Translations under genes and position numbers: made by a program
Notes under the pieces: generated by a model
The model's input: the letters and a program-made list of their open reading frames with translations, nothing else
Told to the model about the DNA's origin: nothing
Database searches by the model: none
Assembly (NCBI GenBank): GCA_030390025.1
Contig: CM059431.1
Coordinates: 118,980,001 to 119,044,000 of the forward strand
Direction of reading: 5' to 3'
Origin: Squalus acanthias
Lineage: Eukaryota
Length of the DNA stretch: 64,000 nucleotides
In this document: in pieces, positions 4,518 to 57,810 of the stretch
Position numbering within the stretch: the stretch's first letter is position 1
Layout of the letters: each line of letters starts with the position of its first letter

Positions 4518-4803
4518 TCACAAGGGTAGTCACTCGGGTGTGTCTTTCTTTAACAATGTCATGTTAGTATTCTATGAAGTGCTGTTAATAAATTATGTAA
4601 TTGTCACACTTGGAGGTCGTTGGCAAATTTGTGTGATGAAATGGAAGTGGCAGAGTGAAGGGTCAGGACTCATTTCACACCCAGCAATGGTGGTGAGAGT
4701 CAAAACAAGGGATGAATCATTGTTTGACTGCTGCATGGTGTTGGTGTTGGGTGATGCAAACCTGAGTACGTGGGTGGCAGCCACATGTATGAGCTGCATC
4801 AAG

Positions 4804-6062
4804 CTATTGTAATCTGCCATTGTTAAGGGTATCCCTGGCGTGATGGGCTGCATCGTGCTCACGTACTGGTCGCAATGGGACTGCCGGCTCGTCCAGGTGT
4901 TCCTCATCCTCGTCACCAACCTCATGGTGAGCCCCTCATCCTCTTCCTCCTCATCCTCCGATGAGGCCCTGTGCTCAATGCCGTCTTCCTCATCCAGTAC
5001 TAATCCTCGCTGCTGTCCTATGTTGTGCAGGGTGCAGAAGATGACGACTATTCACGAGACCCTAGCTGGTGCATACTGAAGGGCTCCTCCAGGTCTGTCG
5101 AGGCATCTGAAGCACATTTTGAGCAAGCCTATTGTCCGCTCGATGACACTTCTCGTGGAGATGTGTCTTTGATTAGAACGTCCCTCAGGCTCATTTGTTG
5201 GTCTCCTCAAAGGTGTCCTGAGCCATGTCTTCAGAGGATAGCCCTTGTCTCCAAGCTGCCAGCCGGCAAGACTGTTTGGCGGTGTGAAGAGCTGAAGGAT
5301 GGTGGAATGGTGCAGGATATACGAGTCATGGCAGCCGCCAGAGAACTTGGTGCACACATGGATGATAATCTTCTTATGGTTGTAGACCAGCTGAACGTTG
5401 AGGGAGTGGAAGCCCTTGCGGTTAACAAATGCTACTGGGTTGTGATGGGGTGCTCTGATGGCCACATGTGTGCAGTCGATGACTCCCTGCACCCGTGGGA
5501 AGCCAGCTAGAGTGGCAAAGCCGAGCGCACGCTCATTGACACTGGCTTCATCAGTGGCAAAATGAATATAACTTGCGGACTTGTTAAAGAGGGCATCGGT
5601 TACCTGTGCGATGCATCTGTGTGCGGCCGACTGCGAGATGCCGCAATGGTCTGCTGCAGATGCCTGGAAGGAGCCTGAGGCGAAGAAGTTGAGGGCAAGG
5701 GTGACTTTGACAGCCACTGGTAAGGAGTGTCCACCCCTTCCTCTGGGCTGCAGGTCTTGCTCCGGTAAAGCGCAAATGTCGGCGACAACCTGGCGCGATA
5801 GCCTGAGCCTCCTTTGGCACTGCTGCTCCGTCATGTTGAGGAAGCTCATCCTCTGCCTGTATACCCTGTGTTGGGGGTATGATCTCTGACACGGTGCAGC
5901 CCTGCGCTGATGCCCTCTGCCCTGTGCAGCATCAGGTGGTTGAGGAGAAGGTTGGCGCTCTTGTTGTTGCTGCTGGTGGTGGTGTGGATGGTTCTGCTGC
6001 TGCTGCGGCTGATCGTCATCAGATTCAGAGTACCAAGGTGAGAGAGCATAAATCATGCCCAT
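4804..6062 (-). pseudogene. Harbinger (HARBI1-like) DDE transposase with one premature stop and one late frameshift
   Basis: Motifs [66 protein letters not shown]. In-frame TGA at 5052-5054 reads on into IVVIFCTLHNI and an acidic tail; a frameshift near 4927 leads to ARDTLNNGRLQ*. Confidence 0.9.
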
Positions 6063-6459
6063 TCTGATGATTCATATGGCAGGTGAAGTTCAGATGACAG
6101 AAGCAATCTATCAAGGGTGAGATATGATGTTGCAAGGAGGTGACAGTAAATAGAGAGTTTACTGCAAACACGTCCCAAATGCATAAAGCTTAAAAATCTG
6201 TTCCAAATACTCAAGCCTGAAGCTTCTGAGAGTGGAAAGTGACCAGCTGTAAAATGGTAGGTTTTAAACCACTTTTGCAGCTGTCACCTAGTGAAAGAAA
6301 TGGAGAGTTGTTCAGAACCCGACATACTTACCTGGCGTGATCCCCAAGCGACGGGAACCTCGTGGAAAACTTGGGAAATTCCTTTGTGCCTGCTAAAATG
6401 GTGAGTAAATTGGTTTAAACACCCTCTCAACTAGCACAATTGAATGACCCGCCACTTAG

Positions 6460-12879: not shown

Positions 12880-14854
12880 TTGCAGGGTAATTGGAAGGGC
12901 ACCTCATTTGGCTGGACCACATAAAGCATTATCGGGTCCTGCTCCCACCTGCCAAAATTGCTCACTATTCCAGAATCGTTCTGGAATGCAAACCCCGGCT
13001 TCTGTTCTCCACTACTAACCATCTCCTCCACCCTCACCTCCAACAACAATTGAGATTGAAACCATCCATTAAGCTGCCTCTGCCACTTTCCTTCCTTCCC
13101 CTAGCCCACCAGGCTAAAACTTCCTCTAAGGTTCCCCCTGCCCTAGCCCTGAACTCATATCTTTCCCCAGTTTCTCTCCGATCTCCTCTCATGACCTCTC
13201 CGCTCTCATCTTGTCCATGAGACCCACTTCCTGCACCCTCGACCCTATTCCCACCAAACTGCTGACCACCCAACTTCCTTTTCTGGCTCCCATGTTAGCT
13301 GACATTGTTAACGGTTCTCTCTCCGCATGTACTGTCCCCCTCTCCCTCAAATCTGCCGTCATCACCCCTCTCCTAAAAAAAAAACCCTTGACCCCTCCGT
13401 CCTTGCAAACTACCGCCCCATCTCCAACCTCGCTTTCCTCTCCAAAGTCCTTGAAAGTGTTGTCGCCTCCCAAATCCGTGCCCATCTTTCCCGCAACTCC
13501 ATGTTTGAATCCCTCCAATCAGGTTTCCGCCACTGCCACAGTACTGAAACGGCTCTCATCAAAGTCACAAATGACTGTGACAAAGGTAAACTATCCCTCT
13601 TCGTCCATCTTGACTTGTCTGCAGCCTTTGACATGGTTGACCACTCCATCCTTCTCCAACACCTCTCCACCGTCGTCCAGCTGGGTGGGACTGCACTCGC
13701 CTGGTTCCATTCTTATCTATCTAATCGTAGCCAGAGAATCACCTGCAATGGCTTCTCTTCCCGCTCCCACATCGTTACCTCTGGTGTCCTCCAAGGATCT
13801 ATCCTTGGCCCCCTCCTATTTTTCATCTACATGCTGCCCCTTGGCGACATCATCTGAAAACACAGCGTCAGTTTCCACATGTACGCTGACGACACCCAGC
13901 TCTACCTCAGCACCACTTCTCTCGACCCCTCCACGGTCTCTAAATTGTCAGACTGCTTGTCCGACATCTGGTTCTTGATGAGCAGGAATTTTCTCCAATT
14001 AAATATTGGGAAGACAGAAGCCATTGTTTTCGGTCCCCGCCACAAACTCTGTTCCCTAGCCACTGACTCCATCCCTCTCCCTAACATCTGTCTGAGGCTA
14101 AACCACACTGTTCGCAACCTTGGTGTCATATTTGACCCTGAAACGAGCTTCCGACGACATATCCACAGCATAACTAAGAACGCCTATTTCCACCTCCGTA
14201 ACATCGCCTGTCTCTGCCCTGCCTCAGCTCATCCACTGCTGAAACCCTCATCCATGCCTTTGTTACCTCTAGACTTGACTATTCCAATGCACTCCTGGCT
14301 GCCCTGCCACATTCTACCCTATGTAAACTTGAGGTCATCCAAAACTCAGCTGCCCGTGTCCTAACTCACACCAAGTCCCGTTCACCCATTGCCCCTGTAC
14401 TCGCTGACCTACATTGGCTCCCGGTTAAGCAACGCCTCAATTTCAAAATTCTCATCCTCGTTTTCAAATCCCTCTATGGCCTCGCCCCTCCCTATCTCTG
14501 TAATCTCCTCCGCCCCACAACCCCCCCTCCGAGATATCTGCGCTCCTCTAACTCTGCCCTCTTGAGTATCCCTGATTATAATCGCTCAATCTTTGGTGGT
14601 CGTGCCTTCTGTTGCATAGGCTCTAAGCTCTGGAATTCCCTGTCTAATCCTCTCCGCCTCTCTACCTCTCTTTCATCCTTTAAGACACTCCTTAAAACCT
14701 ATCTGTTTACCAAGCTTTTGATCACCTGCCCTAATTTCTCCTTATGTGGTCAAATTTTTTGTCCCAAATTTTTTGTCTTATAATACTCCTGTGAAGCACC
14801 TTGGGACTGTTTACTACATTAAAGACGCTATATAAATACAAGTTGTTGTTGTTG
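12880..14854 (+). mobile_element. L2-clade LINE, 5'-truncated, frameshifted RT
   Basis: LDPSVLANYRPISNLAFLSKVLE, QSGFRHCHSTETALIKV, LDLSAAFDMVDH, QGSILGPLLF, YADDTQLY; (GTT)n tail. Confidence 0.9.
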
Positions 14855-24954: not shown

Positions 24955-27900
24955 TCATAGAGTCACAGAGTAACGGTACAGAAGGAGGCCATTCAGCCTA
25001 CTGAATCCATGCCGGCTCTCTGTGGAGCAATCCAGTCAGTCCCATTCCCCTGTTCTATCCCCATAGCCCTGCAAGTTTATTTCCCTCATGTGCCTATCCA
25101 GTCTCCCCTTGAAAACATTGAGTGTCTCCATTTCCACCACTTCCATCGGCAGCGAGTTCTAGGTCCTCGCCATTCGCTGCGTAAAAAAGTTTTTCCTCAC
25201 ATCCCCCCTGTATCACTTGCCCAAAACCTTAAATCTGTGTCCCGTAGTTCTTGTTCCATCAACTAGTGGGAACAGCCTTTTCCCGTCTAGCATGTCCAAA
25301 CCCAACATAATCTTGTACACCTCTATCAAATCACCCCTCAACCTCCTTTGCTCTAATGAAAACAAATCCAGCTTCTCCAAACTGTCCTTGTAGCTAAGAT
25401 CCCCCATTCTGGTAAATCTGCTCTGCACCCTCTCAAGGGCCTTCACATCCTTCCTAAAGTGTGGTGACCAGAACTGGACACAATACTCCAGTTGTAGCTA
25501 AACCAGCACTTTATAAAGGTTCAGCATAACTCTATACCTCTACTTATGAAGCCCAAGATCCCATATGCTTTGCTAACCACTCTCTCAAAATGTCCTGCCA
25601 CTTTCAGGGACCTATGTACATTAACTCCCAGGTCCCTCTGTCCCTGCACACTCTTTAAAACTGTGCCATTAAGTGTATATTGCTTCTCCTTGTTCTTCTG
25701 CCAAAATGCATCATCTCACACTTCTCTGTATTAAATTCATCTGCCATTTGTCTGCCCATTCTGCTAGCCTTTCTATGTCCTGCTGCAGTCGATTAGTATC
25801 TTCTCACTGTTTGCCACTCCCCCAAGTTTGGTGTCATTGGCAAATTTAGAAATTCTACTCTGTATTCCAATATCCAGGTCATTTATATATATCAAAAAAA
25901 GCGGTGGCCCCAGCACTGACCCTTGGGGAACACCACTATCTACCATCCTCCAGTCTGAAAAACAGCCATTTACCACAACTTGCTGTTTTCTGTTCTTAAG
26001 CCAATTCCTTATGCAAGCTGCCACTGACCCACCTATTCCATGAGTCTCAATTTTGTTAATCAGCCTTCTATGTGGTACTTTGTCAAACGCCTTCCGAAAA
26101 TCCATGCAGACAACATCCATTGCATTCGCTTCATCAATCATCCGTTACATCATCAAAAAATTCAATTAGATTAGTCAATCACGATCTGCCTTTTACAAAT
26201 CCATGTTGGCTCTCCTTAATTAGCTTAAACCTCTCCAAGTGCCCATTAATTTTTTCCTTGATTATTGTTTCTAAAACTGATGTTAAACTGACCGGCCTGT
26301 ATTTACTAGGATTGTCCTTACACCCTTTCTTGAACAATGGTGTCACATTTGCCACTTTCCAATCCTCAGGCACCTCCCCCGCATCTAGGGAAGATTGGAA
26401 AATTGTGGCAAGCCATTCTGCTATCCCCTCCCCCAATTCCCTTAGCAACCTGGGATGCAAGCCATCTGGACCAGGCAACTTATCCACTCTAAACATATCC
26501 AGCCTTTCCAGTACATCCTGTCTATCAATTTCACCCCTTCCATTGCTCTATCTTTTCCACTTCTACCGATATTTTGTCAGCATGCACTTCCTTAGTAAAC
26601 ACCGATGCAAAGTACTAATTGAGTATTCTAGCCTTGCCCTGCATCTCTAAGCATATATCACCTTCTTTTTCCCTAATCGGCCCCACATTGCCTCTTACTA
26701 CCCGTTTACTGTTTACATGCCGGTAGAAGATTTTTGGGTTCCCTTTTATGTTAACCGCCATTCTACTCTCATATTCTCTCTTTGCCAATCTTCTTTTCAT
26801 CTTCACTTCCCCTCTCAACTTATTGCATTTGGTCTGGTTCTCCCTTGAAGAATTCACCTGACATGCATCATATACCCTCTTTTTTTGTTTAAGCATCTTC
26901 TCTATCTCCCTTGTCATCCAAGGAGCCCTTGCTTTGGTTCCCTTACCCTTCCCTCTTGTTGGAATGTACCTAGACTGTACTTGGAACATCTCCTTAAAGA
27001 TCACCCATTGTTCCATTACAATTTTTCCTGTCAGTCTTTGGTTCCATTTTACCCTGGCTAGATCCTTTCGCATCCCATTGAAGCCCTATTCCAGTTTCGA
27101 AGTTCCACTCTAGATTGTTCCTTGATCCTCTCCATTGCTAATCTAAATCTTCTGAAACGATGATCACTCATACCCAAGTGTTCTCCCACAGACACTTGGT
27201 CGACCTGGCCCACCTCATTCCCTAGCACCAGATCGAGCAATACCTCCTTCCTAGTTGGGCCAAGAACATACTGGTCAAGGAAATTTTCCTGAACACATTT
27301 CAGAAATTCCTTCCCCTCTTTTCTCTTTACCCTAGCATTATCCCAATCGATATTTGGGTAATTAAAGTCCCCCAATATCACCACTCGATAGCTCTTGCAT
27401 ATCTCTGCGATTTCCCTGCAGATTTGCTCCTCTACCTCCCTCTTACTATTTGGAGGCCTATAGCATACCCCCAATAGTGTGATCATACCCTTTTTGCTCC
27501 TCAACTCTAACTAAATGGATTCTGCCCTTGTCCCCTCAAGAACATCCTCCCTTTCCAACACTGCAATGTCTTCCTTAATCAGCACTGCCACCCCACCTTC
27601 CTTTTTTCCTTCCCTATCTTTTCTGAACACCTTGTACCCTTGAATATTAAGTGCCCAGTCCTCACCGCTTTTAAGCCACGTTTCCGTTATTGCCACATCA
27701 TATTGCCGCATGGTTAATTGTGCTTGTAGCTCACCAAACTTATTCACCACACTTTGTGCGTTTACGTACATGCATTCTAAACCCATTTTTGAATTTTTTG
27801 TAGTCTTTTAGTCTGATCCTAGCTAATATGGTACTACTTCCGCCTCTAATACTACTTTCTTCTCGAGTACAACCAACACACTCACTCTTTTATGCGCCTT

Positions 27901-31903: not shown

Positions 31904-33014
31904 TTAGACAGTCTCAATGAGCAGAGAACAGAGCTCTGGTTCTGAATGCTGGGTTGATATCCAGTAGGATACTCATGTCTGGTGGGTGTTGTGGAAGCCC
32001 ATAAAACTCTTGTGCCATGTAAGACTATCCTATTGGTTGGTATAAAGATGGTTACAGCCATGGCAGAAGTGTTCACATTGCAGCCTGTCAAAATGTTAAT
32101 TAGCCTGTGAATACTTCCATTACTTCACAATATTCTCCAAGGTAGAAGTGTGAAGATATGAAAACAACCACCACCCCGGCTTTTCACACATTCTTTTGTC
32201 TTATATTGTTAATATTACCAGCCATTTACCCACCTTCTGTTTTACACATAAGGACATTGTCGGTTATTACATTTCTTCGCATCTCTATGTTTTTCCCTCA
32301 CCTTCCCTTTTTTTCTGTTCCTTTTTAAATACTGTTCTCTGTATTGTCTTCCTGTTCTGATGCAGGGTCCACCTGATACGTTAACTTGCCTGTTCTCTCT
32401 GCAGATGTGCTAAATGGGGCAATTTCTCAAGCACCAATGGATTCCCAGTGCATTAAACCAGGACTGATTGATTTTTGCTCAATGGGAACAATTTGATAAA
32501 TAGGACGATTTAATTTCCACCACGGTGTCCCAATTAATAGACTTTTGCTACCAATGTGTTTCGAAAATCATGATACCCTGAACAGACAAAAACAGTCAAA
32601 TCTATCCCCACTCCATTATGAAAATCAGAACATCACTAATTTCCTAATTGGTAATGAAATGTCTAATTAGCAACGGCACCTAATTATCTGAAGAAAATCT
32701 ACTTTTCTCTAAAAGCTCTATTCCAGTGTTAAAGGGAATAGACATTATCACGAACTTTGAAAATCTGCAAACCTTCTATGACCCTTGAGGATAACTTGTA
32801 CACACAGAACACTGTCCAGAAGAAATTTAAAATATGTCAGCTGATTTTTCAAAATTCCCCTTCACTTTTAGGATTTTTTTCATTAAACCAGTGCTGCTGG
32901 TTGATTGGAACATCTTACCTGAATTCAAAATCTCAAAGTCAAAAAAAAATCTTAAAAATAACTCTGGTGCTCGTTTCCAATAACACTGGGAAAGAAATTA
33001 AATCCTCCCTTCTC

Positions 33015-34292
33015 GTCCACATACACCCACGCTTCCGCCACATACACCACCCACCCCTCCACAAACAACCCCCTCCACAAACCCCTTCCACACCCCCTCC
33101 ACCCCCACTCCGCACCTCCCTCCACACCCCCTCTGCAACTCCCCCTCCATGCCCCACCTTCAGCCCCACTCCACCGCCCTCCGCACCCCCCACTCCCCCT
33201 CCACACCACCCACTCCGCCTCTGCACAATCCTCTCCACACCCCCTTCACAACTCCCCTCCACTCGCCCCTCCGCATACACACCAGTCCGCCCCCCTCCGC
33301 ACCTCCCTCCACCCCCACTCCACACCTCCCTCCACACCCCCTCTGCAACTCCCTCCACACCCCACCTTTACCCTCCACTCCAGCCCCTTCCGCAACCCCC
33401 AGCCCCATTCCACCCCCCACACCCCTGCACCCCTCTTCGCACACCCGCATCCCCTCCGCACCCGCCTTCACACCCCGTCTGTAACACCCCCTCCACACCT
33501 CACCTTCAGTCCCACTCCACCGCCCTCCGCACCCCCCCTCCACATCCCCCACTCCCCCTCTGCACCCCCCACTCCCCCGCCGCACTCCTGCACCCACCTC
33601 CGCACACCCCTCTCCACACCCCCTTTCACAACCCCCCTCCACTCGCCCCTCCGCATACACACCACTCCGCATCCACTCCGCCCCCTCCGCACCTCCCTCC
33701 ACACTCACTCCGCAACTCCCTCCACAGCCCACCTTTACCCTCCACTCCAGCCCCCTCCACAACCCCCAGCCTCCTTCCATCCCCCTACACACCCCTCCGC
33801 ACCCCACACCCCTCTTCGCACACCCGCACCCCCCTCTGCACACCCCTTCCCACCCCCATTCCGCACCCCACTCCACACCCTGTCTGCAACACCCCCTCCA
33901 CACCTCACCTTCAGCCCCACTCCACCGCCCTCCGCACCCCCCACGCCCCCTCCGCACCCCCCACTCCTGCACCCGCCTCCGCACACCCCTCTCCACACCC
34001 CCTTTGCAACCCCCCTTCACTCGCCCCTCTGCATACACACCACTCCGCCCCCTCCGCACCTCCCTCCACACCCACTCCGCAACTCCCCCTCCACAGCCCA
34101 CCTTTACCCTCCACTCCACCCCCCTCCACAACCCCCAGCCCCCCTCGCACCCCACACCCCCTCCTCACCCCCTCCACACCTCCTCTCCACACCCCCCTCC
34201 ACAAACCCCTCCACTCCCCCCTCCGCATACACCCCCCTTCCGCACCCCCCGTACCCCCATCCCCTCCCCCCTCCACACACACCCCTCCCCCA
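33015..34292. repeat. C-rich low-complexity tandem repeat with ~370-400-bp higher-order period
   Basis: CCCCTCCACA/CCGCAC subunits; marker actcgcccctc.gcatacacacca recurs at ~33261, 33641 and 34019. Confidence 0.88.
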
Positions 34293-36044
34293 TTCCTTTA
34301 TCTAGTTGCTGTTGTGTGAAAAGTAGTGACATCATCAAACACTATACTTTAAGAGCACAAGAACAGAAACATGAGAAGGTGGAACTGAGAAAGAACCATT
34401 AAGCTCATCTTTCAATTTAGCTTTATAGGCAAGAGTTTCTCAGAATATTTTCCATTTCTCTCCTACCTCATCCTCAAGTCTGTATCCTTCTGCTCCCTGT
34501 TTAATCAGGAACCTCTCTTGCAATGATTCATGTACACATTCCCTGTTCTGGGAAGACATCTAATTTGAGCATTAATTTTAAAATCTACCCAACTCAAATT
34601 TTCTCAGATTATAATAAGATCCTTTAGGATTCCTCTACCTCCACTGCAATAATTCCCTGGAGTGGTTAAAATTATATTAAAATGGCTGCATAATATAATG
34701 GGCCTTGAAATTAAGCTGTGTGAATATTAGCATGCAAATACAAGTTTGTATAAAATGTCTTTGTCTGGTATTTTAACAGAGTCATTAAGACATTACAATA
34801 GCTATTAAAAAGCAGATGAGGGAATTTCATACAAATGTGTTAATGTTCATACACTAATTTTCACACTGCATAATTTCAAGACCATGATTTCTAAAATAAG
34901 TACATAATCTAAGACATATTCCTATTTGTAAAAATATTCTTTTTAATATAAATGAGAGAAGAATCACTCCTAGTTCCACTGATGGACCAGTAGATAACTG
35001 GTGTACCAGGTGCGTTACAGAGCCACACTGAACAGTAGTGTCTCAGAATTCAATCTCTGATCTGATCTGTGCTCGTCTGCTGATCTCAACTGAGGTAGTT
35101 TTAGCAGTAATAAATTGGCCTAAGAGCCATGGTTTGGCGAAAGATAAATCAACCCGGATTCCTGCTCCCAAGGCCAGTAGCCAGTGACTCCTGCTTGAAA
35201 ATGAGAGCATGGATGTCCATTGATGACAGGATTGAGCTCAGTTCTGATGCTCCCCCTGGCCAAACAGCTTACAGACAACAATGTCTAAATTCACACAAGA
35301 AGTAGGGTGACTTTAGCTAATTATCGTAGGGTTACCAGTGCCTGTAAAACCATACTACTGCACCAGTCACCATATTTTGGCATTAACATTTAGTTGTTTT
35401 ACCTTAATGGAATATTAAATAAAAGGTTGTCAGATGGATGCTTGACTGACTTGTTAAAAACATAGGACTAATTCAAGTCTGCTTGTTTATAAATTCTGAG
35501 GATTGCAACAACACATTTTTTTAAAACAAAGAAGGGATTTTATGAGCTGAGGAACCATTTACTGCCAATAGATTCTATTAACAAGGTATCCTTTGCCAAG
35601 ACTGTCAGTCCAATGTGCTGACCACTTAAGTGACACTGTAGTTCACAAATCAATGCAAAACTAGATGATCGTTACTTCTGCACACCGTTTAGAGCCTTGG
35701 ATGCTTGCAGTCATCTCTGTGTACCACTGATGCCACTAGTTGCTGCAGTCAGGGAAAAATACCATGGTCACTTCAGAGCATTTTGGAAAATTTCAGTGTC
35801 TCCCAAAGTTTAAACAGCTGCAAAACATTCAAATAAAATGGCGATTGATAAATATTTAGCACTATGCATAAGTGTGAGCAAAGCTCTTCATATAGATGGG
35901 TCTTCTGTTCTGATGAGGGCTAAATAACTAAATCAGTCTTCAGATTAAACCAGTCATTTTAATGTTGAAAAATTTTGCCATTATAAAACTCTAAAATAAT
36001 CCTATTAAATGTCCTCTAAGTGCCACCTCCATAGTATTTTCTGT

Positions 36045-36161: not shown

Positions 36162-37073
36162 CCCAAATTTAAAAAAAAAAGAATATTCCATTGGCCATTT
36201 TAATTCCTTTACCACGGTACAAAACATAGTAACTACTCTGAAATTTAGATGGAAATAGGCATTAGCAAATATAAAATAACACCCAAAACATGGAAAAATT
36301 CATAATATAAAATAAATAGTTACTAACCATGCATGAACAAATATGGTCTAAAAACAAGATGACCTGCAGCTTACACCTTATCTAAACAATAATAGCACAA
36401 ACTGCACAATTATAATCACAGCAAAAATAAACAGGGGAAGGTCACTGTGATCAATACTGGAGACATGACTTCATAGAATACAATTAGTACTCATGAATGG
36501 AGCATAATAATAGCTATTTCCTCCAGCTATGTGGTGTATCCCTGTGGTGTTGAGTTCATGCATGACATGCATCACTTGCTTCTAATTAGACAGTTCTGTA
36601 CAATACATTCATGCGTTCGTGCAACTTTACAACTGTAAAACCTAAATGCCGTAATCTACTTCCCCTTTTTTGTATTCTTTTTACAATTCTCCCTTATCTC
36701 CAAATGACAACAAATCGTCTTTATATTTTTTTTTTATACAACTGATTAATTGTCATTTACATTCGGAATATCAACATGAAAAGAGCACTGAAAAGCACAA
36801 CATTACCGCCTGTGCTTTCTTGCGAAATACGTGTATGTTTCACAGCAGGAGAAAAATTGTTAGTTCTAAAAGTTATATGCACTTCTGTGGCGTGCGTGCT
36901 TTCTATTTTCATTAGAAAGCTGAGTTCAACATTCTGTTGCAGAATTTTAGCAGAAGCCTATAGTATCATTATTTACATCAGGAGTGTCTAACCATCAATG
37001 TCACGTCCTCATCTCCGGATAATGTGCTGTTTTAAATCACACGCTATATTTGCAGTACTTCATTTCATGAAGC

Positions 37074-38470
37074 CTAGTCTGAAAGGGAGTGTGTAACACA
37101 ATCGTATACTCTATGAGGTCCCTCTGCATGGTAAGGCCCATTGTGCCAGTAAGAATCGCACACTGTTTGCAAGGAGTTAATTTCTGAAGCAGAGGAGTTG
37201 GTATCCCTTTTTCTCGATCTCTTACGATTTCTCAAGATAAACACCAGCATGCCAACAACCGTAAAGGCAGACGTAACAAAGACAAGTAAAAGGCCAGGTA
37301 CCAGCACTGAAATAGAAACTCTGCTGGTCTCCAAGTAGGGATTCACGTGAGTCCCTGTCTCTGCTGATATGGTAATGTTACTGGATGAGGAAAACGTTAG
37401 ATGGATTTTTGCATACAACTCCGGGCACATCAGCTCATTGCTTATAGACTTAAAATCTCTGTCCCAAAATTCTTCAGGAGATGCACATTTTAATTCGCTC
37501 ACAACCACATCAGTGCCCATCCTCTCAACCCACTGCTTGAAAGCTATGATGTTGCATGAACAGTCCCATGGATTTCCATGAAGGTCGATTTGCACAACTG
37601 AAGTTAGCTGATCCAAAACACCAGTGACTGGGAGATACATAAAATAATTGGTGTGTAAACTTAGCTTGGAGAGGGAGACAGAAGAAAACACATCTACAGG
37701 CAAAGACTTCAATAGATTGTTATGTAAAAACAATTCTCTCAGATTTGGCATCCAGTCAAATGTGCCTGGTAGGATTAACTGAATTAAATTGAACTCCAAA
37801 TTCAGGTACTCTGTATTTTGCAGCCCTACAAACATATCGGGGATGAGGGTTTCCAAGTTATTGTTATCCAGATACAGCCAACGCACATCAGTGAGATTAT
37901 GAAAAGTGTTGTTTTCTATTAACTTTATGGCATTATTTCCCAAATCCAACAAAGTCAAACTGCTGTAGTCCAGGAAATGAGTTTTCCTTATGATTCCTAT
38001 ATTATTCTGTCTTAAGAACAGTTCCTGTGCTTTTAATGGTTTGGGCTGGAGCTCAGCTATACTCTCAAGCTTGCTGCCCCTGCAGTTAACCTCAAGACCT
38101 GATTCAGGGCTATTGATAGAACAGCTACAAGCTGTTGGACATCCAGCTAATAAAAGGGGATTACTACTGCCATTAGGTACAATGGCATTGGCCGAAGGTC
38201 TTGTCCTCAGCTGCCAGTTTCCGCTTGGCTTTGATACTCCTGTGTGCACTGATGCTGACGTTGGTGACCTGGGATGCTGAACGGCGGGAGTTGGAGGCAG
38301 CCCAGAAGCCCCTTGAGCAGGTGGAGCAACAAGACTTAAATCATTATCAATCTTCCAAGGGCATAAATCGTATTCGGATGTTTCATTCAGGTCGTTTCCT
38401 TGTAATCGCATGGGTGCCTCACAAACTACTCTTCCAGTCGAGGCTGAATGGGAGATGTGCTCTAGCCATT
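37074..38470 (-). CDS. SLITRK1: SLITRK1-like, coding exon 2 (LRRCT, second LRR block, transmembrane helix, short cytoplasmic tail)
   Basis: The acceptor tttttcccttcaag|AA TGG restores [28 protein letters not shown] segment [27 protein letters not shown] and C-terminus [22 protein letters not shown]...[12 protein letters not shown] are characteristic of SLITRK1. Joined CDS is 670+1397=2067 nt, i.e. 688 aa. Confidence 0.93.
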
Positions 38471-39266
38471 CTTGAAGGGAAAAACAATATAGATTGGAGA
38501 TGTTCCTGATATGTTGCTATATTAATCAATGTTAGCCACCACCATATTGTTAAAATATATATTACAAAAATATCTTATCAAAATTACTGTGCAAAGTATT
38601 AACATAAAGGGTTCACATTAAACTCCAAAATCAATTGTCACTATAATTAGCACAACTTCATCTTGTTAAAATATGCTGATGCTAAAGAATGGAGGCATTC
38701 AGAACCTGCAACATGTCATCACCCCAACTCTCAATTTTACCAACTCTTTGATGGTAAACAGTAAAAGTAACAAACCAGGAAATGAAAACTATCAAGTGTT
38801 ACAGCAAAGTGACCGAAAAAAAACCCCATAAGACTGTATCTTGAGAATGTGTGCTCTGTGCTGATACTGAGCGCCATGGCTACAAGAGACATTTTCAAAG
38901 AAGTACACAACTGAAACTCCTGCATGTTATGAACGAGAGCTGTGTAGCTCTGTACACTCCGGAACTTCCTTTCTGCTTCTCAAGCCATTCTGAATGAAAA
39001 CTGCGCAGGTCAGTTAAGGCACTTCTGTGCTGTGAACTCGTGTTTGCTTCAGACTTGGCACAGATTGTCAGAACTTAATGTACCCCCCTCTAGCTGCCAT
39101 CAATGAACACAGACAGACCACTGCTATTTATCTTGTTCGGAATAGTTTTGATTTGAAGCACCGTTTTACCCAACTACGCCACCTAGCGGTCACAATTAGT
39201 AATTATTATTATCATCCTTCCCCCCCCCCCCCCCCCCCGCTCTTGCTTTAATCCTCATCACCTCAC
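38471..39266 (-). other. 796-bp phase-1 GT-AG intron inside the SLITRK1-like CDS
   Basis: Canonical GT and AG ends with a polypyrimidine tract; splicing restores both frame and homology with no residue gained or lost at the junction. Confidence 0.9.
39174..39192 (-). promoter_or_regulatory. CTCF-like motif in the intron
   Basis: Minus strand TGACCGCTAGGTGGCGTAG fits the CTCF core CCASYAGRKGGCR. A weaker same-orientation motif TGGCAGCTAGAGGGGGGTA lies at ~39081-39099. Confidence 0.5.
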
Positions 39267-39936
39267 CTTTAAGGGGCAGCAGATCGCAAGTGCAGTCCCA
39301 GGGGTTGTCCTCCAGCAGAATTTCAGCGACCCCGGGGATCAGCTCCAAAATCCCTTCGTAAGGCAGCGTTTTCAGCCTGTTTCCCCGGAGATCGAGATGT
39401 GTGATGGGCACGCTCTGGAACAGGTCAGCTGGGAGAGAGGTGATGAGGTTGTCATTCAAAATCAGAACCTCCAGCTTGTTGAGGTCCTGGAAAGCCCCCG
39501 GGTCGATGTCCCTGAGCAGGTTGAAATCCGCCTGGAGGTACTTCATATCATCCAGCCCCAGAAAGGTGTGCCTCCTGAAGCCTTTAATCTTGTTGTTGTT
39601 GATGTGCAGCCGTTTCACCAGCTGCAGCCCCAGAAAAGCCCCCGGGATGATGTCGTGCAGGCCGTTGTTCTCCAGGTGCAAAGTGACCGCGCTGTAAAAG
39701 TTGGCGAACTCGTTGGGGAAGAGTTTGGACAGCGAATTACTGTGCAGGAGGAGTTCGTAGAAGCGGGAGGTGGGCGCGCTGTAATTCTGCAAGTTGGAGA
39801 TGCCTCTCCTCTCGCAGTCGATGTGCAGGACGCCTTCCACCTCGGTGCAAGTGCACAGCTCCTCGCAAAGGTCCGTCGTCGGATTGCCCCAAGCCAAGCC
39901 CAGAATGATCTGCACCAGCGCAAACCACGGCAGCAT
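39267..39936 (-). CDS. SLITRK1: SLITRK1-like, coding exon 1 (signal peptide, LRRNT, first LRR block, start of LRRCT)
   Basis: MLPWF...[47 protein letters not shown]...[19 protein letters not shown] closely matches recalled vertebrate SLITRK1. It ends at the donor AAAG|gtgagg (phase 1). Start placed at AAAATG 39936; an in-frame ATG also exists at 39963. Confidence 0.93.
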
Positions 39937-41450
39937 TTTCAGACAGTTGCATCTGCCTCCCATCTCATGCCATGAATTGTTTCAGCTGAATTTCAATTAA
40001 ATAAAAAATATTTTGCACGCACGCACACATATATATATATATAAAAAACAACCAACAGATCCGAGCCCGGGAAGTTGCTTGTCAATCCTGACACAAGTGT
40101 GTCGGTACGCAGCACCAGCAGAAACGCAATACTAGGCAAAGCCCCGGTAGTTTTCTAAAAGAATAGGCATCGCAAAAACTGCAAACAGCAAGCAAGTACA
40201 TAATCAGGCATTTACAATCCGGTTACGGTCACAGTGCTCTCTTGTTTCCTTACCGCCGTCCCCCGCAGACTACAAGAAATATATCATTCCAGATTCACTC
40301 AGTTGCACTTGGCACCTGATCCCATGTCCCAGACGTTTCGCTGGCCGCTGAAGAGACAACGTGCTGGAGAGAGAGAAATTCTGCAATCTCTGCATATTCC
40401 GCCAGCCTCTCTGCCTTTCTTTTTGTCTGTGTGTGTGTGTGTGTGTGTGTAAAGGGAAGCGCTAAGCGGCTCTGATCGTTCCAGTTTGGTGCCCGCTGGA
40501 AGAGCTCGCACCCTCTGCCGAGCCGTGCTGGCAAAAAAAAATCCCGTCTGATCAGGGAATCGGTGGGCGAAAAATCAATTCACACAACCAGCCAAATGTT
40601 GGCATCAAAGCGGTCGATCCGTTGAGCCCAAACAGATTCACTTGGAGCAGAAAGATTTTCCCCCCACGTCTTTATCTTTCCGAACCTCACTGCTGGCAAA
40701 GTAGATGTGGACTGTGTTTTGTACCCACAGCTTGGATTCAATTACAGAGGCAAGGCGTCAACTGACTATCAGTAAGGGGTAATTATATCTCTCGCTAGTT
40801 CTGTTTATTGCAGAAAACTCCTTGGATTTCGCCCTCCCCCCCTCTTCTCTCTCTCTGAGCAGCGCCTCTCTCCCGGACACTTCAGCAATGGTCTGGATCA
40901 GAAGGGAGTGTTTGATTAAAGGACTGACTACCAGAGACTGCACATAGGGCTTAGCACGTATGTTTGTGTGGCTATGTTATGTGCGTCTGCACATTGGGCT
41001 GAATGCATGCACGCAGTTGTCTTCCTTACGTACAACACCCAGCGTGTGTCAGTCCACAGATCAACTGGACGTAAAATATAAAAGGGAATGACGCTGGTTT
41101 AGCAACTTTTCAAGTGGGCGAGCCGGGTTGCAATTCAGCTAACTTCACTTTGCAGATTTTTTTTTTGGGGGGGGGGGGGATTTTTTTTGTTTGAAATGAA
41201 TGCTAATTGACACGTCCGGTCTTTGGAGAAAATCGCAATGCAATAGTTAAAACCGCCGGGAAATAGCAGCGCTCGCCTTTAACGCGCTGAACAAAAGCGC
41301 CAATTGTTTTTTATTCGCGGCCACAGCGAGAAGGGCGCTAGCGCTGTCAGTCTGCGGGACACAGCTGTATGTTCATTTTGATTTTTTTTTGTTTGTTGGT
41401 TCTTGCATAATATCGGAAGGATTTCCCCTCGCCCGTGCTTTCTTTAAAAG
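39270..41450. promoter_or_regulatory. CpG-rich region over exon 1 and the putative promoter of the SLITRK1-like gene
   Basis: Visibly higher CpG density than flanks; no recognisable TEs; contains (TG)n at ~40427-40450. Confidence 0.55.
39986..40253 (-). other. Possible 5'UTR intron of the SLITRK1-like gene
   Basis: Candidate donor CG|GTAAGG at 40253 and acceptor tattttttatttaattgaaattcag at 39986; no transcript evidence. Confidence 0.4.
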
Positions 41451-43631
41451 CTGAATTAGATGTTGAACAACCAAATAAATTGATTTAACTCAATTTTGGC
41501 AAATGGCAACAGCTGCCGCAGTTCATTGGATCCCGAACAGTAAAAGATTACGAAAATGGCAGCAAAACAGTGCAGAAGCAACTATTGCAACGTTATAATA
41601 AAGGCTGTGTACACAGCCATCGGATAGCTTTATATTCTGCTGCAATTTGCAATGTGACGCTATAGAACGAAAAGAAACCATAATCATTAACTTATTGCTC
41701 CCCCCCCCCCCCCCCCCGCCATCCAAGTTAAATTGAATCTATTTAATGTTGTCATTTTTACTGTGGTCACATTTGATCTGCAGTTCTACTATTTTAATCT
41801 TTGTAATCTAAGGGAAAAATGAAATTGGCTCTCATTGCCAATGTTTTTTTTTACCATTGTGTGGACATACAATCAGATCTGAAATCTTTATGACAGAATA
41901 GATTTTGCCATGAATGATTCGATTGCAGCATGAACAGGTAACTACTGTGGAACGCGAAGATTTTTATATAATAATCCAAACTGCATCTTGCAGGAGGCGT
42001 TTGTACGAATACTATTTCTGATGTTCAGGTACTGGCTATGCAGGACTGAAAAAAAAATGATACTACTGGAAATGAATGCATGCAAATGATATTTAATCAG
42101 AACTGTGCAGTGTATAATGTGCCATTAGCAGCAAAATAACCAGTTTAAAAATGATTGAAGCTTTGACATTCCTTTGCATTCGTCTCCTCTGCAGTAAAAG
42201 TAATCGGTCAAAAATCAAATCTAATGATCAAAATTCTAAAAATACTGTTCTTCTGAAAATCTCTACCGAGTTTCTATTAAAAGAAAAGTTGAACTTATTG
42301 ACACAAAATAATAAAAGCTTGCAAAAACAAAAAAAAAAGTCCTTCCATGTTATTAATTTAATTTAATTAAGGTTCTTTACACATTTGATCAATATATTGA
42401 TATGTATAAGAAAATATTGCCTAGGAAGATTATTTATAGCTTTGAAGTCCTATCCATTTTAGCAAAAGATATTTGTCCTTCTAATCTTGCACTTGAGGAT
42501 TCATTACGAACTATGCAGCATATTTCATAGATGTAGAGAATTCCTGATCTATAATAAAAACGGTAGGGTAAGAATAGATTATAAAAGGCATAGAGATGCC
42601 ATAACAGCCTACGCCATCCTGCTGCAGCAACTGCAAAGGCAACCTGAACCAAATGAAGATTGATGACAAACAAGGAAAGTTAATAATGAGAGGGTAGAGG
42701 CTGATACAGCACATGCAGTCTGCACAACAGCAATTCATACTGGAAAGGAAGCTGTCACCTCTGCATTACTCAGCTCTTTATATTTTATGCATATAACCCA
42801 AAGTAAACAAAAAAAAGAGAATCAAGAAAGCAGTTCAAAGCATTCTAATCCTGTTGCACTTAAAATGAGTCTACTTGTAAATATAGCACCCATTATTAAA
42901 ATCTAGTTTGCGGCGAAAGTCACCATGCTTGATGTAAATGGTTAATTGAAATGGCTCTTGAATCAGTCTGCTGAAATTAACCATGACTGTGGTCTATATT
43001 TAACTAATTTCAGAGCTGATGATTTATATCACCAAAGGCAGCTAATGTTGTGTTTCAGATTATTTCATGACATACTGTACGCCGATCAGTAAGTATTTGT
43101 AAGCTTAATTATAGTCAAACTCCTTCTATTTGGGCTGACAGTGATATTCTAAAAAAGCTTGGCTGGAACAGCCTGGCAACTGCAGTGTTGGATTTCATAC
43201 TGCACACTTACATTTTGATCGCTAGTCTCCACTGGCATTTGTATTTGGAGAATTTGACAGTATCATGGGATAGAGGGAGGTAAAAAATCATTGTGTGGAG
43301 GAATAAGAAACCCTCCCAGTTTGCACTGTGCAAGAATGCTTCCTGGTGAAAAGGCAATTATAGCAACAGTGGAAAGGTCTGTGAGGATGGTATTACCCAC
43401 TCTCCAATGGAAAAGGATACTCTGCACACAAGGGGAATAAGTGGGAAGAATGGGATAGAGCTTTAAAGTAACTTTTATTACCATGAGTTGATGTAAATTG
43501 TTATCCAATTTCTAATTATTAAAATAAAATGTAATGTTTGGAATCTTACAGTTCATTAGAAACCAGCATTAAGGCTGCTGTCCAGAGGAGGGAAACTAGA
43601 TAAGTGACAAGTTAAACATTTTAAAGACAGC

Positions 43632-44212: not shown

Positions 44213-44243
44213 AATTGTGCTTGTTCATGAAGGATTTTATGTT

Positions 44244-46095
44244 CATAGAATCATAGAAATTTACAGCACAGAAGGAGGCCATTTGGCCCATCTTGTCCGT
44301 GCCGGCTGAGAAAGAGCTATCCACCCTAATCCCGCTTTCCAGCACTTGGTCCGTATCCTTGTAAGTTACAGCACTTCAAGTGCATATTCAAGTACTTTTT
44401 AAATGTGATGAGGGTCTCTGCCTCTACCACCCTTTAGGCAGTGAGTTCCAGACCCCCCCAGCACCCTCTGGGTGAAAAAATTCTCCTCAAATCCCCTCTA
44501 AACCTCCTACCAATTACTTTAAATCTATGCCCCCTGGTTAGCAACCCCTCTGCTAAGGGAAATAGGTCCATCATGTCCACTCCATCTAGGCCCCTCATAA
44601 TTTTATACACCTCAATTGGTCTCCCCTCAGCCTCCTTTGTTCCAAAGAAAACAACCCCAGCCTATCCAATCTTTCCTCATAGCTAAAATTCCCCAGCCCA
44701 GGCAACATCCTCGTAAATCTCCTCTGCACCCTCTCTAGTGTAAGCACATCCTTCCTGTAATGAGGTGACCAGAACTGCACGCAGTATTCTAGATGTGGCC
44801 TAACTAGTGTTTTGTACAGTTCCAGCGTAACCCCCCTGCTCTTATATTCTATGCCTCGGCTAATAAAGGCAAGTATCCCATATGCCTTTTTAAGCACCTT
44901 ATCTAACTGTCCTGCTACCTTCAGGGATCTTTGGACATGCACTCCAAGGTCCCTCTGATCCTCTGCACTTCTCAGTGTCCTACCATTTATTGGCCCGGAT
45001 TTTCTGATCTGGAAAAAAGTCTACAAACTTACCTGCTGGCTCCGTAGGTCCCGACACTTCCGCTCCTGGGGTTCTCCTGGTGCATGCGTGCAGAGGCCCA
45101 GGTATCCCAGAGGCGCAGGCAGTTCGCAAGTGTCCCTGGGATCACGTGGGCCATGGGGAACCAATCAAGGAAGGGAATCCCCCTTCACTCCTGTCAAAAG
45201 TATGACTGGGGATCACTCAAAAAACAAACTAAAACATTAAATATATATTTTTTTTAAATCACGTATTTAAAATTTGTTAAAATCACATTAAATTAAATAT
45301 TTTAAACAAAAGTTTAATTTTTTGAAAAAAATAATTAAAGTTTTTTACGGGGCTAAAAATAAACTTACCTGTTTTAAAAGTATTTTAAAATTATAAATAA
45401 GTGAAAAAAAATATTTTTTTTACTTTTTTAATCTCATGCTGGTAAAAGCAGGCCTTACGCACGCTTTTACCAGGTGTAAGATTTTTAAAGGTTTTCAGCG
45501 GGCGGAGGTTGTGCAGAAAGTGGAACTCTCCACCCGCAGAGGCCCTTCTCCAGAGCAGGCGGAGAATCTGTCAAGAGGATTCTTGACAGATCGGAAGTGC
45601 CGGTTTTCAGCGCATGCGCTTTGCATGCCTGAAACCGGCACTTGCGAGGCCCCTACGGGTGGTCGGAAAATATGGGCCATTGTGTATTCCCTGGCCTTGT
45701 TAGCCCTCCCCAAATACATTACTTTACACTTCGGATTGAATTCCATTTGCCACTGTTCTGCCCACCTGACCAGTCCATTGATATCTTCCTGCAGTCCACA
45801 GCTTTCTTCTTCATTATCAACCACTCGGCCACTTTTTGTATCATCTGCAAACTTCTTAATCATACTTCCTACGTTCAAGTCCAAATCATTGATATATACC
45901 ACAAAAAGCAAAGGACCCAGTACTGAGCCCTGCGGAACCCCACTGGAAACAGCCTTCCAGTCACCAAAACACCCTTCGACCAAATACCCTTTGTTTCCTG
46001 CCTCTGAGCCAATTTCGGATCCAACTTGCCACCTTGCCTTGGATCCCATGGGCTTTTACTTTCGTGACCAGTCTGCCATGCGGGGCCTTATCAAA
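44244..46095 (-). mobile_element. CR1 LINE 3' portion interrupted by a Harbinger-type element
   Basis: catagaatcatagaa tail; [39 protein letters not shown]. Confidence 0.9.
44992..45678. mobile_element. Non-autonomous Harbinger-type element
   Basis: TIRs GGCCCGGATTTTC / GAAAATATGGGCC; perfect ATT TSD; internally homologous to 28834-29572. Confidence 0.88.
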
Positions 46096-46589
46096 ACCAG
46101 TTGGATCCAAAATTCAGCAATATGCAAATAAGTTTGAGCAGAAACTTGAGCAAAAAAACTTCTTCAAACTTGTGCAATTTCAAGTTCAATTTGTGCCCGG
46201 ATCACCGATTGTGCCCAAAGCAGAAACTCTTGGCCATATTGTTTCAAGTAGATTATGCAATGCAGGCAGCAAAGAAACCAATAAACTGAAATATTATTTA
46301 GAAGTCATATAATAACACAACTTAGGTAAAGGACCAGGGCTCATTGTGCAGAACACTATTAAAATTAAAAAGACTAGGAGAGAAGTTGAGGTAAATCAAG
46401 AAGTAATGCATCTTTTATCAGTAATGATAATATATGTTCATTGCAGCTGCATACGCAAAGCAGTAGACACAAGTTTACAGAAAGATTTATTTAAGATTGT
46501 CTTTGAAAATGTGTGCATTGCAGTAACCCTCATTTTAACACACAGGAATGCATCAGGCTAGAGGATGCATTGTGGTCCATTGTGGTCAG

Positions 46590-54586: not shown

Positions 54587-57500
54587 ATAGAAACATAGAA
54601 GATAGGAGCAGGAGTAGGCCATTCGGCCCCTCAAGCCTGCTCTGCCATTCGATGAGATCATGGCTGATCATCCAAACTCAGTACCCTGTCCCTGCCTTCT
54701 CCCCATATCCCTTGGTACCTTTAGCCTTAAGAAATATATCTAACTCCTTCTTGAATATATTTACTGACTTGGCCTCAACTGCCTTCTGTGGTAGAGAATT
54801 CCACAGGTTCACCACTCTCTGGGTGAAGAAATTCCTCCTCATCTCTGTCCTCAATGGCTTACCCCTTATCTTTAGACTGTGACCTCTTGTTCTGGACTCC
54901 CCCGCCATCAGGAAAATCCTTCCTGCATCGAGTCTGTCTAGTCCTGTTAGAATTTTATAAGTTTCAATGAGATCTCCTCTCATTCTTCTAAACTCCAGCG
55001 AGTATAAGCCCAATCGACCCAATCTCTCCTCATACGTCATTCCTGCCATCCCAGGTATCAGTCTGGTGAATCTTCACTGCACACCCTCTATGGCAAGAAC
55101 ATCCTTCCTCAGATAAGGCAACCAAAACTGCACACAATACACAAGGTGTGGTCTCACCAAGGCCCTGTACAGCTGCAGCAAGACATCCTTGTTTCTGTAC
55201 TCAAACCCTCTCACTACGAAGGCCAACATACCATTTGCCTTCTTAACCACCTGCTGTACCTGCATGCTTACCTTCAGCGACTGGTGCACAAGGACACCCA
55301 GGTCTCGTTGCACTTCCCCTTTTCCCAATCTATTGCCATTCAGATAATAATCTGCCTTTCTGTTTTTGCCACCAAAGTGGATAACCTCACATTTATCCAC
55401 ATTATTCTGCATCTGCCCAATCACCCAACCTATCCAAATCACACTGGAGTTTCTTGGCATCCTCCTCGCAGCACACATGCCCACCCAGCTTTGTGTCATC
55501 TGCAAACTTGGAGATATTACATCTCGTTCCCTCGTCTAGATCATTAATATATATAGTGAATAGCTTGGGTCCTAGGACCGATCCCTGTGGAACCCCACTA
55601 GTCACTGCCTGCCACTCGGAAAAAGACCCGTTTATTCCAACTCTTTGCTTCCTGTCTGCCAACCAGTTCTCTATCCAAGTCAGTACCTTGCCCCCAATCC
55701 CATGTGCCTTAACTTTACACGCAAATCTCTTATGCGGGACCTTATCGAAAGCCTTCTGAAAGTCCAAATACACCACATCCACTGGTTCTCCCTTATCTAT
55801 TCTATCAGTTACATCCTCAAAAAATTCCAGTAGATTAGTCAAGCACGATTTACCTTTTGTAATTCCATGTTGACTTTGTCCAATCCTGTCACTGTTTTCC
55901 AAGTGCTCTGCTATTACATCTTTTATAATGGACTCTAGCATTTTCCCCACAACCGATGTCAGGCTTACTGGTCTATAATTCCCCATTTTTTCTCTACCAC
56001 CTTTTTTGAACAGTGGGGTAACATTAGCTACCCTCCAATCCATGGGAACTGTTCCAGAGTTGATAGAATTTTGGAAGATGACCAGCAATGCATCTACTAT
56101 TTCTAGGGCTACTTCCTTAAGTACCCTAGGATGTAGATTATCAGGCCCTGGGGATTTATCGGCCTTTAATGCCGTCAATTTCCCTAACACCATTTCCCTA
56201 CAAATACTGATTTCATTCAGTTCCTCCCTCTCATTAGACCCTATGTTCCCCGACATCTCTGGGAGGTTATTTGTGTTCTCCTTTGTGAAGACGGAGCCAA
56301 AGTATGTATTTAATTGGTCTGCCATTTCTTTGTTCCCCATTATAAATTCCCCTGATTCTGACTGCAAGGGACCTACGTTTGACTTCAACAATCTTTTTCT
56401 CTTCACATACTTATAAAAGCTTTTACAGTCAGTTTTTATGTTCCCTGCAAGCTTACACTCGTACTCTATTTTCCCCCTCTTAATTAATCCCTTTGTCCTC
56501 CTTTGCTGAATCCTAAACTGCTCCCAATCCTCAGGTTTACTGCTTTTTCTGGCCAATTTATATGTCCTCTCCTTGGATCTTATGCTATCCCTGATTTCCC
56601 TTGTCGGCCATGGTTGAGTCACTTTTTTTGTTTTATTTTTATGCCAGACAGGGAAGAACAAATTCTGTAGTTCATCCATGCGATCTTTGAATGTTTGCCA
56701 TTGCCTATCCACCGTCAACCCTTTGAGTAACATTCCCCAATCTATCCTACCCAACTCGCGCCTCATACCATCGTAGTTTCCTTTATTTAAATTCAGGACC
56801 CAAGTCTCTGAGTCAACTATTTCATTCTCCATCTTAATGAAGAATTCTATCATATTACGATCGCTCCGCCCCAAGGGGCCCCACACAACAAGACTGCTAA
56901 TTAATCCTTTCTCGTTACACAATACCCAGTCTAAGATGGCCTGGTCTCTAGTTGGTTCCTCGACATATTGGTCCAGGAAACCATCCCGTATACACTCCAG
57001 GAATTCCTCCTCCACAGTATTGTTACTAATTTGGTTAGCCCAATCTATATGTAGATTAAAATCACCCATGATAACTGCTGTGCCCTTATTGCACGCATCG
57101 CTAATTTCCTGTTTAATGCCATCCCCAACCTCTGCATTACTGTTTGCGGATTTGTATACCACTCCCACTAACATTTTCTGCCACTTGGTATTTCTCAGTT
57201 CTACCCATACGGATTCCACATCATCAGAGCTAATATCCTTCCTTACAATTGTGTTAATCCCCTCTTTAAGCAGCAATGCTACCCCACCTCCTTTTCCTTT
57301 TTGCCTGTCTTTCCTGAATATCAAATACCCCTGGATGTTGAAATCCCAGCCTTGGTCACCCTGAAGCCATGTCTCCGTAATCCCAATCATATCATATCCG
57401 TTTACCTCTATTAGCGCAGCTAATTCATCCACCTTATTACGAATGCTCCTCGCATTAAGACATAAAGCCTTCAGGCTTGTTTTTTTAACACTCTTAGACA

Positions 57501-57810
57501 TTTTAGAATTATTATTTACTGTGGCCATGTTTGATTTAAACCCTTGATTTCTCTGACTGTCACCTTTGCTTTTCTCCTTCCTGTCTTTTGCTTCTATCCT
57601 TGTTTCCCTTTCCTCTGTCTCCCTGCTCAGGTTCCCAACCCCCTGCCATTTTAGTTTAAACCCTCCCCAGAGCACTAGCAAACACTCCCCCTAGACATTG
57701 GTCCCAGGCCCTGCCCAGGTGCAAACCGTCCAGTTTGTACTTGTCCCACCTCCCCCAGACCCGGTTCCAATGTCCCAGGAATTTGAACCCCTCCCTCTTA
57801 CACCATTCCT
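54587..57810 (-). mobile_element. Young CR1 LINE: 759-codon open stretch of ORF2 (APE endonuclease + RT) then frameshifts; 5'-truncated in ORF1
   Basis: [73 protein letters not shown]; catagaaa tail. Confidence 0.95.

Follow-up and report, generated by a model that had tools for sequence, protein, structure and literature searches.

We analyzed a window of 64,000 nucleotides from Squalus acanthias (assembly GCA_030390025.1, contig CM059431.1, positions 118,980,001 to 119,044,000), and all positions given here are counted from its first letter. On the reverse strand, the window contains two coding segments of a SLITRK gene separated by 796 bp (Table 1). Joining these segments gives a 697-aa protein that is colinear with chondrichthyan SLITRK1 and whose only stop is the terminal one; exon 2 alone, read from its first Met, gives a 445-aa frame. 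The junction is gap-free against all ten proteins aligned to the joined product, and P-L-K-E-W-L is read in each of the 24 named chondrichthyan entries, with 15 of the 16 members of the main elasmobranch protein cluster listed. The joined product is 94.7%, 94.4%, and 93.5% identical to the SLITRK1 proteins of Heptranchias, Heterodontus, and Pristiophorus, respectively, and identities to chondrichthyan SLITRK1 range from 82 to 95%. For exon 1, human SLITRK1 is the top match among solved structures (PDB), with SLITRK2 behind, and one of the 11 matches found by the exon-1 protein search was chondrichthyan. A quick tree, built on exon 2 with the SLITRK paralogues left out, places the S. acanthias product inside a chondrichthyan clade (support 100) and groups it with Pristiophorus and Heptranchias (support 87 and 82). 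Judged from its sequence, the gene is a SLITRK1 orthologue with the full domain layout, and its product is predicted to be a normal, full-length SLITRK1.

Table 1. Features of the SLITRK1 locus in the analyzed window
Feature	Position	Strand	Description
SLITRK1 coding exon 1	39267..39963	-	ATG at 39963, signal peptide, first LRR domain to L-P-L-K plus one base (G at 39267)
SLITRK1 coding exon 2	37074..38470	-	remainder of LRR1 cap, linker, LRR2, transmembrane segment, short tail, stop
Predicted phase-1 GT..AG intron, 796 bp	38471..39266	-	donor AAG/GTGAGG, acceptor ...CCCTTCAAG
G run just downstream of the donor	39219..39240	-	
Exon copy of the 9-bp repeat, CCCTTAAAG	39267..39275	-	
Intron-end copy of the 9-bp repeat, CCCTTCAAG	38471..38479	-	8/9 identical; provides the AAG acceptor
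Used acceptor AG and exon-2 start	38460..38472	-	partner of the inner 13-bp copy, period 519 bp
Inner 13-bp copy, repeat family D6	38979..38991	-	12/13; follows CTGAC and a short T-rich tract
Candidate 5' UTR intron, 268 bp (GTAAG..TTCAG)	39986..40253	-	motifs only; ends 23 bases before the ATG

The LRR1 cap encoded by exon 2 reads H-S-A-S-T-G here (38443-38438, reverse strand), where all 24 named chondrichthyan entries read A-L-I-G. These are two neighbouring hydrophobic-to-polar changes in an otherwise slow-changing gene, and S-T at this place was found in none of the 188 matched proteins.

Several other features surround the gene. Most of 39500-41600 is CpG-rich. Since GC3 drops at the intron, exon 1 having 0.78 and exon 2 only 0.43, the edge of the promoter CpG island likely falls inside the intron. 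Transposon remnants occupy 4593-6071, 13130-14783, 26060-27510, 44243-46131, and 55008-57690; judging from the translations, we take a frame near 5052-6071 to be a Harbinger-like transposase, and other frames in the window are presumably L2-like and CR1-like reverse transcriptases. About 2.7 kb downstream of the SLITRK1 stop lies a C-rich low-complexity repeat of about 1.6 kb (32742-34402) with long spurious frames.

The predicted intron and the repeats at its ends

The first-pass annotation had proposed a 796-bp GT-AG intron splitting the Glu codon of LK-E-WLE, and both its ends and the restored frame are confirmed from the sequence. The Glu codon of L-K-E-W-L-E is split after its first base. 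All three frames of the intron contain stops (18, 16, and 19), its length is not a multiple of three, and the reading frame is restored by this splice only. The donor is consensus-like for a U2 spliceosomal intron. A pyrimidine tract precedes the acceptor, CTAAC is located at -65 with no clear branch motif closer, and the base at -3 is A; AAG is an uncommon acceptor, CAG or TAG being usual. The insertion site, AAG/A, fits the MAG/R proto-splice pattern. On these signals, the segment is a predicted spliceosomal intron that is likely real. It also seems to be a genuine part of the genome. Sampled words of 37000-40400 were counted in sequencing runs, and five runs guessed to be DNA contain 0.92-0.96 of them. 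One of these runs comes from a second sample and study, and because it covers 0.92 of the words of a stretch of which the intron makes up 23%, such word shares indicate that the insert is unlikely to be an assembly artefact.

Some alternative outcomes of splicing can be read at this locus. Two further AG sites in exon 2 lie in frame, 9 and 27 bases from its start (TAG at 38462 and CAG at 38444, reverse strand), and could rival the AAG acceptor; their use would remove 3 or 9 cap residues, a form seen in no named protein. Retention of the intron would lead to read-through to a stop at 39196, giving an LRR1-only product of about 255 aa (39196-39963, reverse strand). An Rfam search of 38400-39300 returned two matches, both far below the gathering score, which were rejected.

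As the first-pass annotation had noticed, the exon end CCCTTAAAG and the intron end CCCTTCAAG agree at 8/9 positions, but the match is modest (chance about 0.1-1.7%). With AG fixed, an 8/9 match has a chance of 0.0009 from the base composition of the intron, and of 0.002-0.006 under an assumed acceptor profile. Matches at ≥8/9 were counted at 14 of the 8625 AG-ending 9-mers in the window and at 11 of the 651 that have a pyrimidine tract, both counts including the two repeat sites themselves; the latter counts against reading the repeat as a repair scar. By these nulls, which are window-based or assumed, the match is above chance for a single test, only modestly. The sole mismatch falls on position -4 of the acceptor, at which Lys dictates the exon base, and this placement together with the AAG acceptor favours an exonic origin of the intron end. 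The idea that the acceptor AG is a duplicate of exonic sequence is plausible on the 8/9 match and the AAG acceptor but unproven, given that a pyrimidine tract and an AG raise the background. Flanking repeats are in any case weak evidence of gain, because they are equally common at old and new Drosophila introns; in the available part of PMC3443670, repeats of at least 5 bp flank 26% of conserved vs 25% of gained introns. The short repeats around the intron end may be scars of DNA repair.

A second repeat, absent from the first-pass annotation, was also found. The acceptor AG and the first 11 bases of exon 2 recur inside the intron at 12/13 positions, and apart from this inner copy nothing else in the 64 kb matches them with ≤2 mismatches. 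A junction-touching match of this length appeared in 1 of 300 dinucleotide shuffles of the intron. The inner copy is a candidate older or cryptic acceptor, whose CAG at 38990 would define a 277-bp intron, and the predicted product of its use is E-W-L-E followed by 27 unrelated residues to a stop. Regular use is unlikely, because none of four poly(A) hexamer motifs occurs after the inner acceptor within the intron and no isoform label is attached to any of the 24 named chondrichthyan entries. Among 20 candidate short proteins, none matched the exon-2 start.

Tandem duplication with a 519-bp period was considered and rejected. The unit reaches z 1.42, a score that 17 of 200 shuffles also reach; with the seed removed, z falls to -0.74, so that there is no likeness past the seed, and none of six translated comparisons rose above the shuffles. 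A 7/9 look-alike of the exon end is located at 38754-38746, near the place that such a duplication predicts.

Distribution among cartilaginous and bony vertebrates

A whale shark gene model (P0001, EukProt) agrees with the full-length whale shark protein as far as L-L-P-L-K, after which come 157 unrelated residues; its local alignment stops at residue 232, which is the junction. This break is what a gene finder would yield with a donor here and exon 2 missed. In skate, a frame (P0147) identical to the Leucoraja protein at 445/445 residues starts at the first Met after the junction, as does the 445-aa frame of S. acanthias exon 2, and it was found on two contigs of up to 12,152 bp. Another skate frame (P0148), identical at 687/688 residues, is continuous on a 2,876-bp contig that is likely an mRNA. 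The skate evidence is the weaker of the two because starts inside the gene also occur at contig edges, as in P0069 and P0109, which begin within the gene on short contigs. These data suggest that the intron is present in both shark superorders and probably in batoids. Metagenome contigs gave 402 pattern matches, with no SLITRK1 relatives among them.

In the mammals and teleosts compared, the site is unbroken. Two teleost contigs (NCBI), taken as genomic from the description of the collection, run uninterrupted across it: P0004 in frame, and P0129 in a shifted frame that spans 28 codons and implies TCC CTA AAG GAA TGG. SLITRK1 of pig, human, and mouse is described as being without introns in the available part of PMC4215120, in agreement with the uninterrupted mammalian coding exon assumed by the first-pass annotation. 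The mammalian gene is orthologous and likewise encodes two LRR domains, a transmembrane segment, and a short tail, but it is reported to be intronless, whereas in the shark gene a coding intron interrupts the LRR1 C-terminal cap (PMC4215120 and PMC9846221, in part).

The gain that the first-pass annotation had claimed is thus supported by the unbroken mammalian genes and teleost contigs and by the MAG/R site, and the intron position is probably not private to S. acanthias. Because the site is broken in a whale shark gene model and probably in skate and unbroken in mammals and two teleost contigs, we consider it likely from these sequences that the intron was gained once, before the shark-ray split. 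The gain would be old and not recent, since the same break occurs in the whale shark model and probably in skate. Age and sharing are both probable on the evidence of one whale shark gene model and one skate open frame. The shark-batoid split dates to about 270-300 million years ago.

Origin of the intron

Our leading reading, to which we assign a probability of about 45%, is that the 796-bp predicted intron was gained once before the shark-ray split, most likely as repair filler at a staggered double-strand break that copied flanking exon bases. Such a break in SLITRK1 would have been repaired with inserted filler DNA and copying of the flanking exon bases. The copied CCCTT-AAAG would supply a ready pyrimidine stretch and an AG acceptor, and the filler would contribute the GT donor; precise splicing would then restore the Glu codon, so that the allele would be tolerated. 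This repair would also have left, as a side product, the inner 13-bp copy of the other flank, and slow sequence change in elasmobranchs would keep the repeats visible. Survival of repeats for this long needs slow change, and the reported elasmobranch substitution rate, about tenfold below that of mammals, fits this (PMC3964593, in part).

Break repair is favoured because the geometry equals that of new introns in Daphnia pulex and because the marks of tandem duplication are lacking. The 33 Daphnia introns were attributed to staggered double-strand-break repair; exon-end bases recur at the far end of the intron, over 4-12 bp in Daphnia and at 8/9 positions in the shark, and many cases have internal repeats (PMC4202315, available part). 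They differ in being about 100,000 years old and polymorphic, whereas the shark intron probably dates back hundreds of millions of years and is common to several lineages, and in that the inner repeat of the shark intron copies the exon flank. Daphnia repeats also fade with age according to the same text, which counts against an old repair scar. Tandem genomic duplication of AGGT, as treated in the available part of PMC3443670, resembles the present case as an old vertebrate gain whose splice sites derive from exon sequence. We rejected it here, as it needs AG/GT and an exon-like intron; exon 2 begins with AA, and the intron resembles neither exon.

Alternatively, the intron may be an old gain at the AAG/A proto-splice site whose mechanism can no longer be traced, and chance may account for the two repeats, given the pyrimidine tract, the obligatory AG, and post-hoc searching. 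We regard this as unlikely, though a serious contender. Against it stand the two separate copies of the flanks, whose individual chances are about 1% or less, and the uncommon AAG acceptor; in its favour are the matches at 11 of the 651 tract-bearing AG sites, the probable great age of the intron, and the finding that in Drosophila such repeats are as frequent at old introns as at new ones (PMC3443670, in part). Also in its favour are other vertebrate gains at MAG/R, which share the proto-splice site and in whose description the term 'direct repeat' has no occurrence in the available text (PMC3151243). Those gains, in GPCR genes of ray-finned fish (MC2R, MC5R, P2Y), likewise placed a new GT-AG intron in a single-exon coding region and are shared by a clade; they arose in fast-changing, compact teleost genomes and are absent from elephant shark (PMC3151243), whereas the present one belongs to elasmobranchs and to an LRR adhesion gene.

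An origin in two steps was also considered, in which the inner CAG (38990) was once the end of an old 277-bp intron and a later insertion of about 0.5 kb duplicated the acceptor and the exon-2 start, the outer copy taking over. The 13-bp repeat would then be the real scar and the 9-bp match incidental. In keeping with this, the 12/13 repeat is singular in the 64 kb at ≤2 mismatches and is matched by only 1/300 shuffles, and the inner copy is preceded by a T-rich tract, CTGAC, and a canonical CAG. We nevertheless judge it improbable, as there is no wider likeness past the seed (z -0.74), the 506-bp spacer has no poly(A) tail or TIR, and splicing at the inner acceptor would give a truncated protein, hence a harmful intermediate.

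Under a further alternative, SLITRK1 of the jawed-vertebrate ancestor already had the intron, and a single loss took place in the ancestor of bony vertebrates. For SLITRK1 alone, such a loss is as parsimonious as a gain if chimaeras have the intron, and elephant shark shows the fewest intron changes among the vertebrates compared (PMC3964593, in part). The paralogues speak against it. SLITRK2-4 have single coding exons, and a SLITRK2-type frame (P0008, ENA contig) spans the site; moreover, the SLITRK6 coding sequence lies in one exon in pig and human (PMC4215120, in part). No invertebrate orthologues of SLITRKs are known according to the available part of PMC9846221. We consider loss quite improbable. 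Gain in the cartilaginous-fish line is the simplest reading, the choice between gain and loss resting on the mammalian paralogue evidence.

A more far-reaching version of the gain is highly improbable in our estimate. When the intron arose, hundreds of millions of years in the past, both flanks would have been copied, and the inner one of these copies would now be a working second acceptor. LAR-type phosphatases PTPRD and PTPRS bind LRR1, and splicing from 39267 to 38989 would produce a secreted, LRR1-only SLITRK1 of 263 aa, which might act as a shark-specific decoy for them.

A transposon origin, in which the intron is a decayed Introner-like DNA element and its acceptor comes from a 9-bp target-site duplication, appears very unlikely. 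Some Introner families do draw their 3' splice site from a target-site duplication, but Introners have many similar copies and often TIRs, whereas the shark intron shows neither within 64 kb (PMC9860276, available part, in which TIRs are not universal among Introners). The reported absence of TIRs in the intron holds, the best end-to-end matches being only 6/8 to 12/20, and no inverted repeats at the intron ends are present among the 25 longest of the 35 listed. The proposed search for dispersed copies of the intron, run here within the 64 kb, found no second copy, and only the G run was matched. Of the insertion with target duplication suggested by the first-pass annotation, the staggered-break form stands as the leading account, still unproven, and the transposable-element form is left without TIRs or a second copy in 64 kb. 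Least probable of all is an unspliced insertion inactivating this SLITRK1 copy: the weak AAG acceptor and the unusual cap S-T (0/188 matched proteins) would agree with it, but both exons are intact, 93-95% identical to those of other sharks, and on a very short branch, exact GT..AG ends restore the frame, and the whale shark model breaks at the same residue.

Significance

A SLITRK1 intron in sharks was not described in the literature searched, which covers few subscription journals, and no paper combining 'slitrk' with 'intron gain' was found there. One supplementary file of the elephant shark paper (PMC3964593) gave no matches. Shark genome annotations probably already model the intron without comment. 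The case is apparently an undescribed example of a known phenomenon, intron gain. Gains described so far in intronless vertebrate genes are mostly from teleosts. As elephant shark has the fewest reported intron changes (PMC3964593, in part), gain in a cartilaginous fish is rare.

Because the protein is predicted to be unchanged, little functional effect is likely unless splicing reaches the inner acceptor. The intron is short and could be aligned over some 20 sequenced sharks, rays, and chimaeras, and would also serve as a clean phylogenetic marker. Once dated, a gain in such a conserved neuronal gene, its flank copies still legible, would be one of the few vertebrate examples that allow an intron's origin to be tested.
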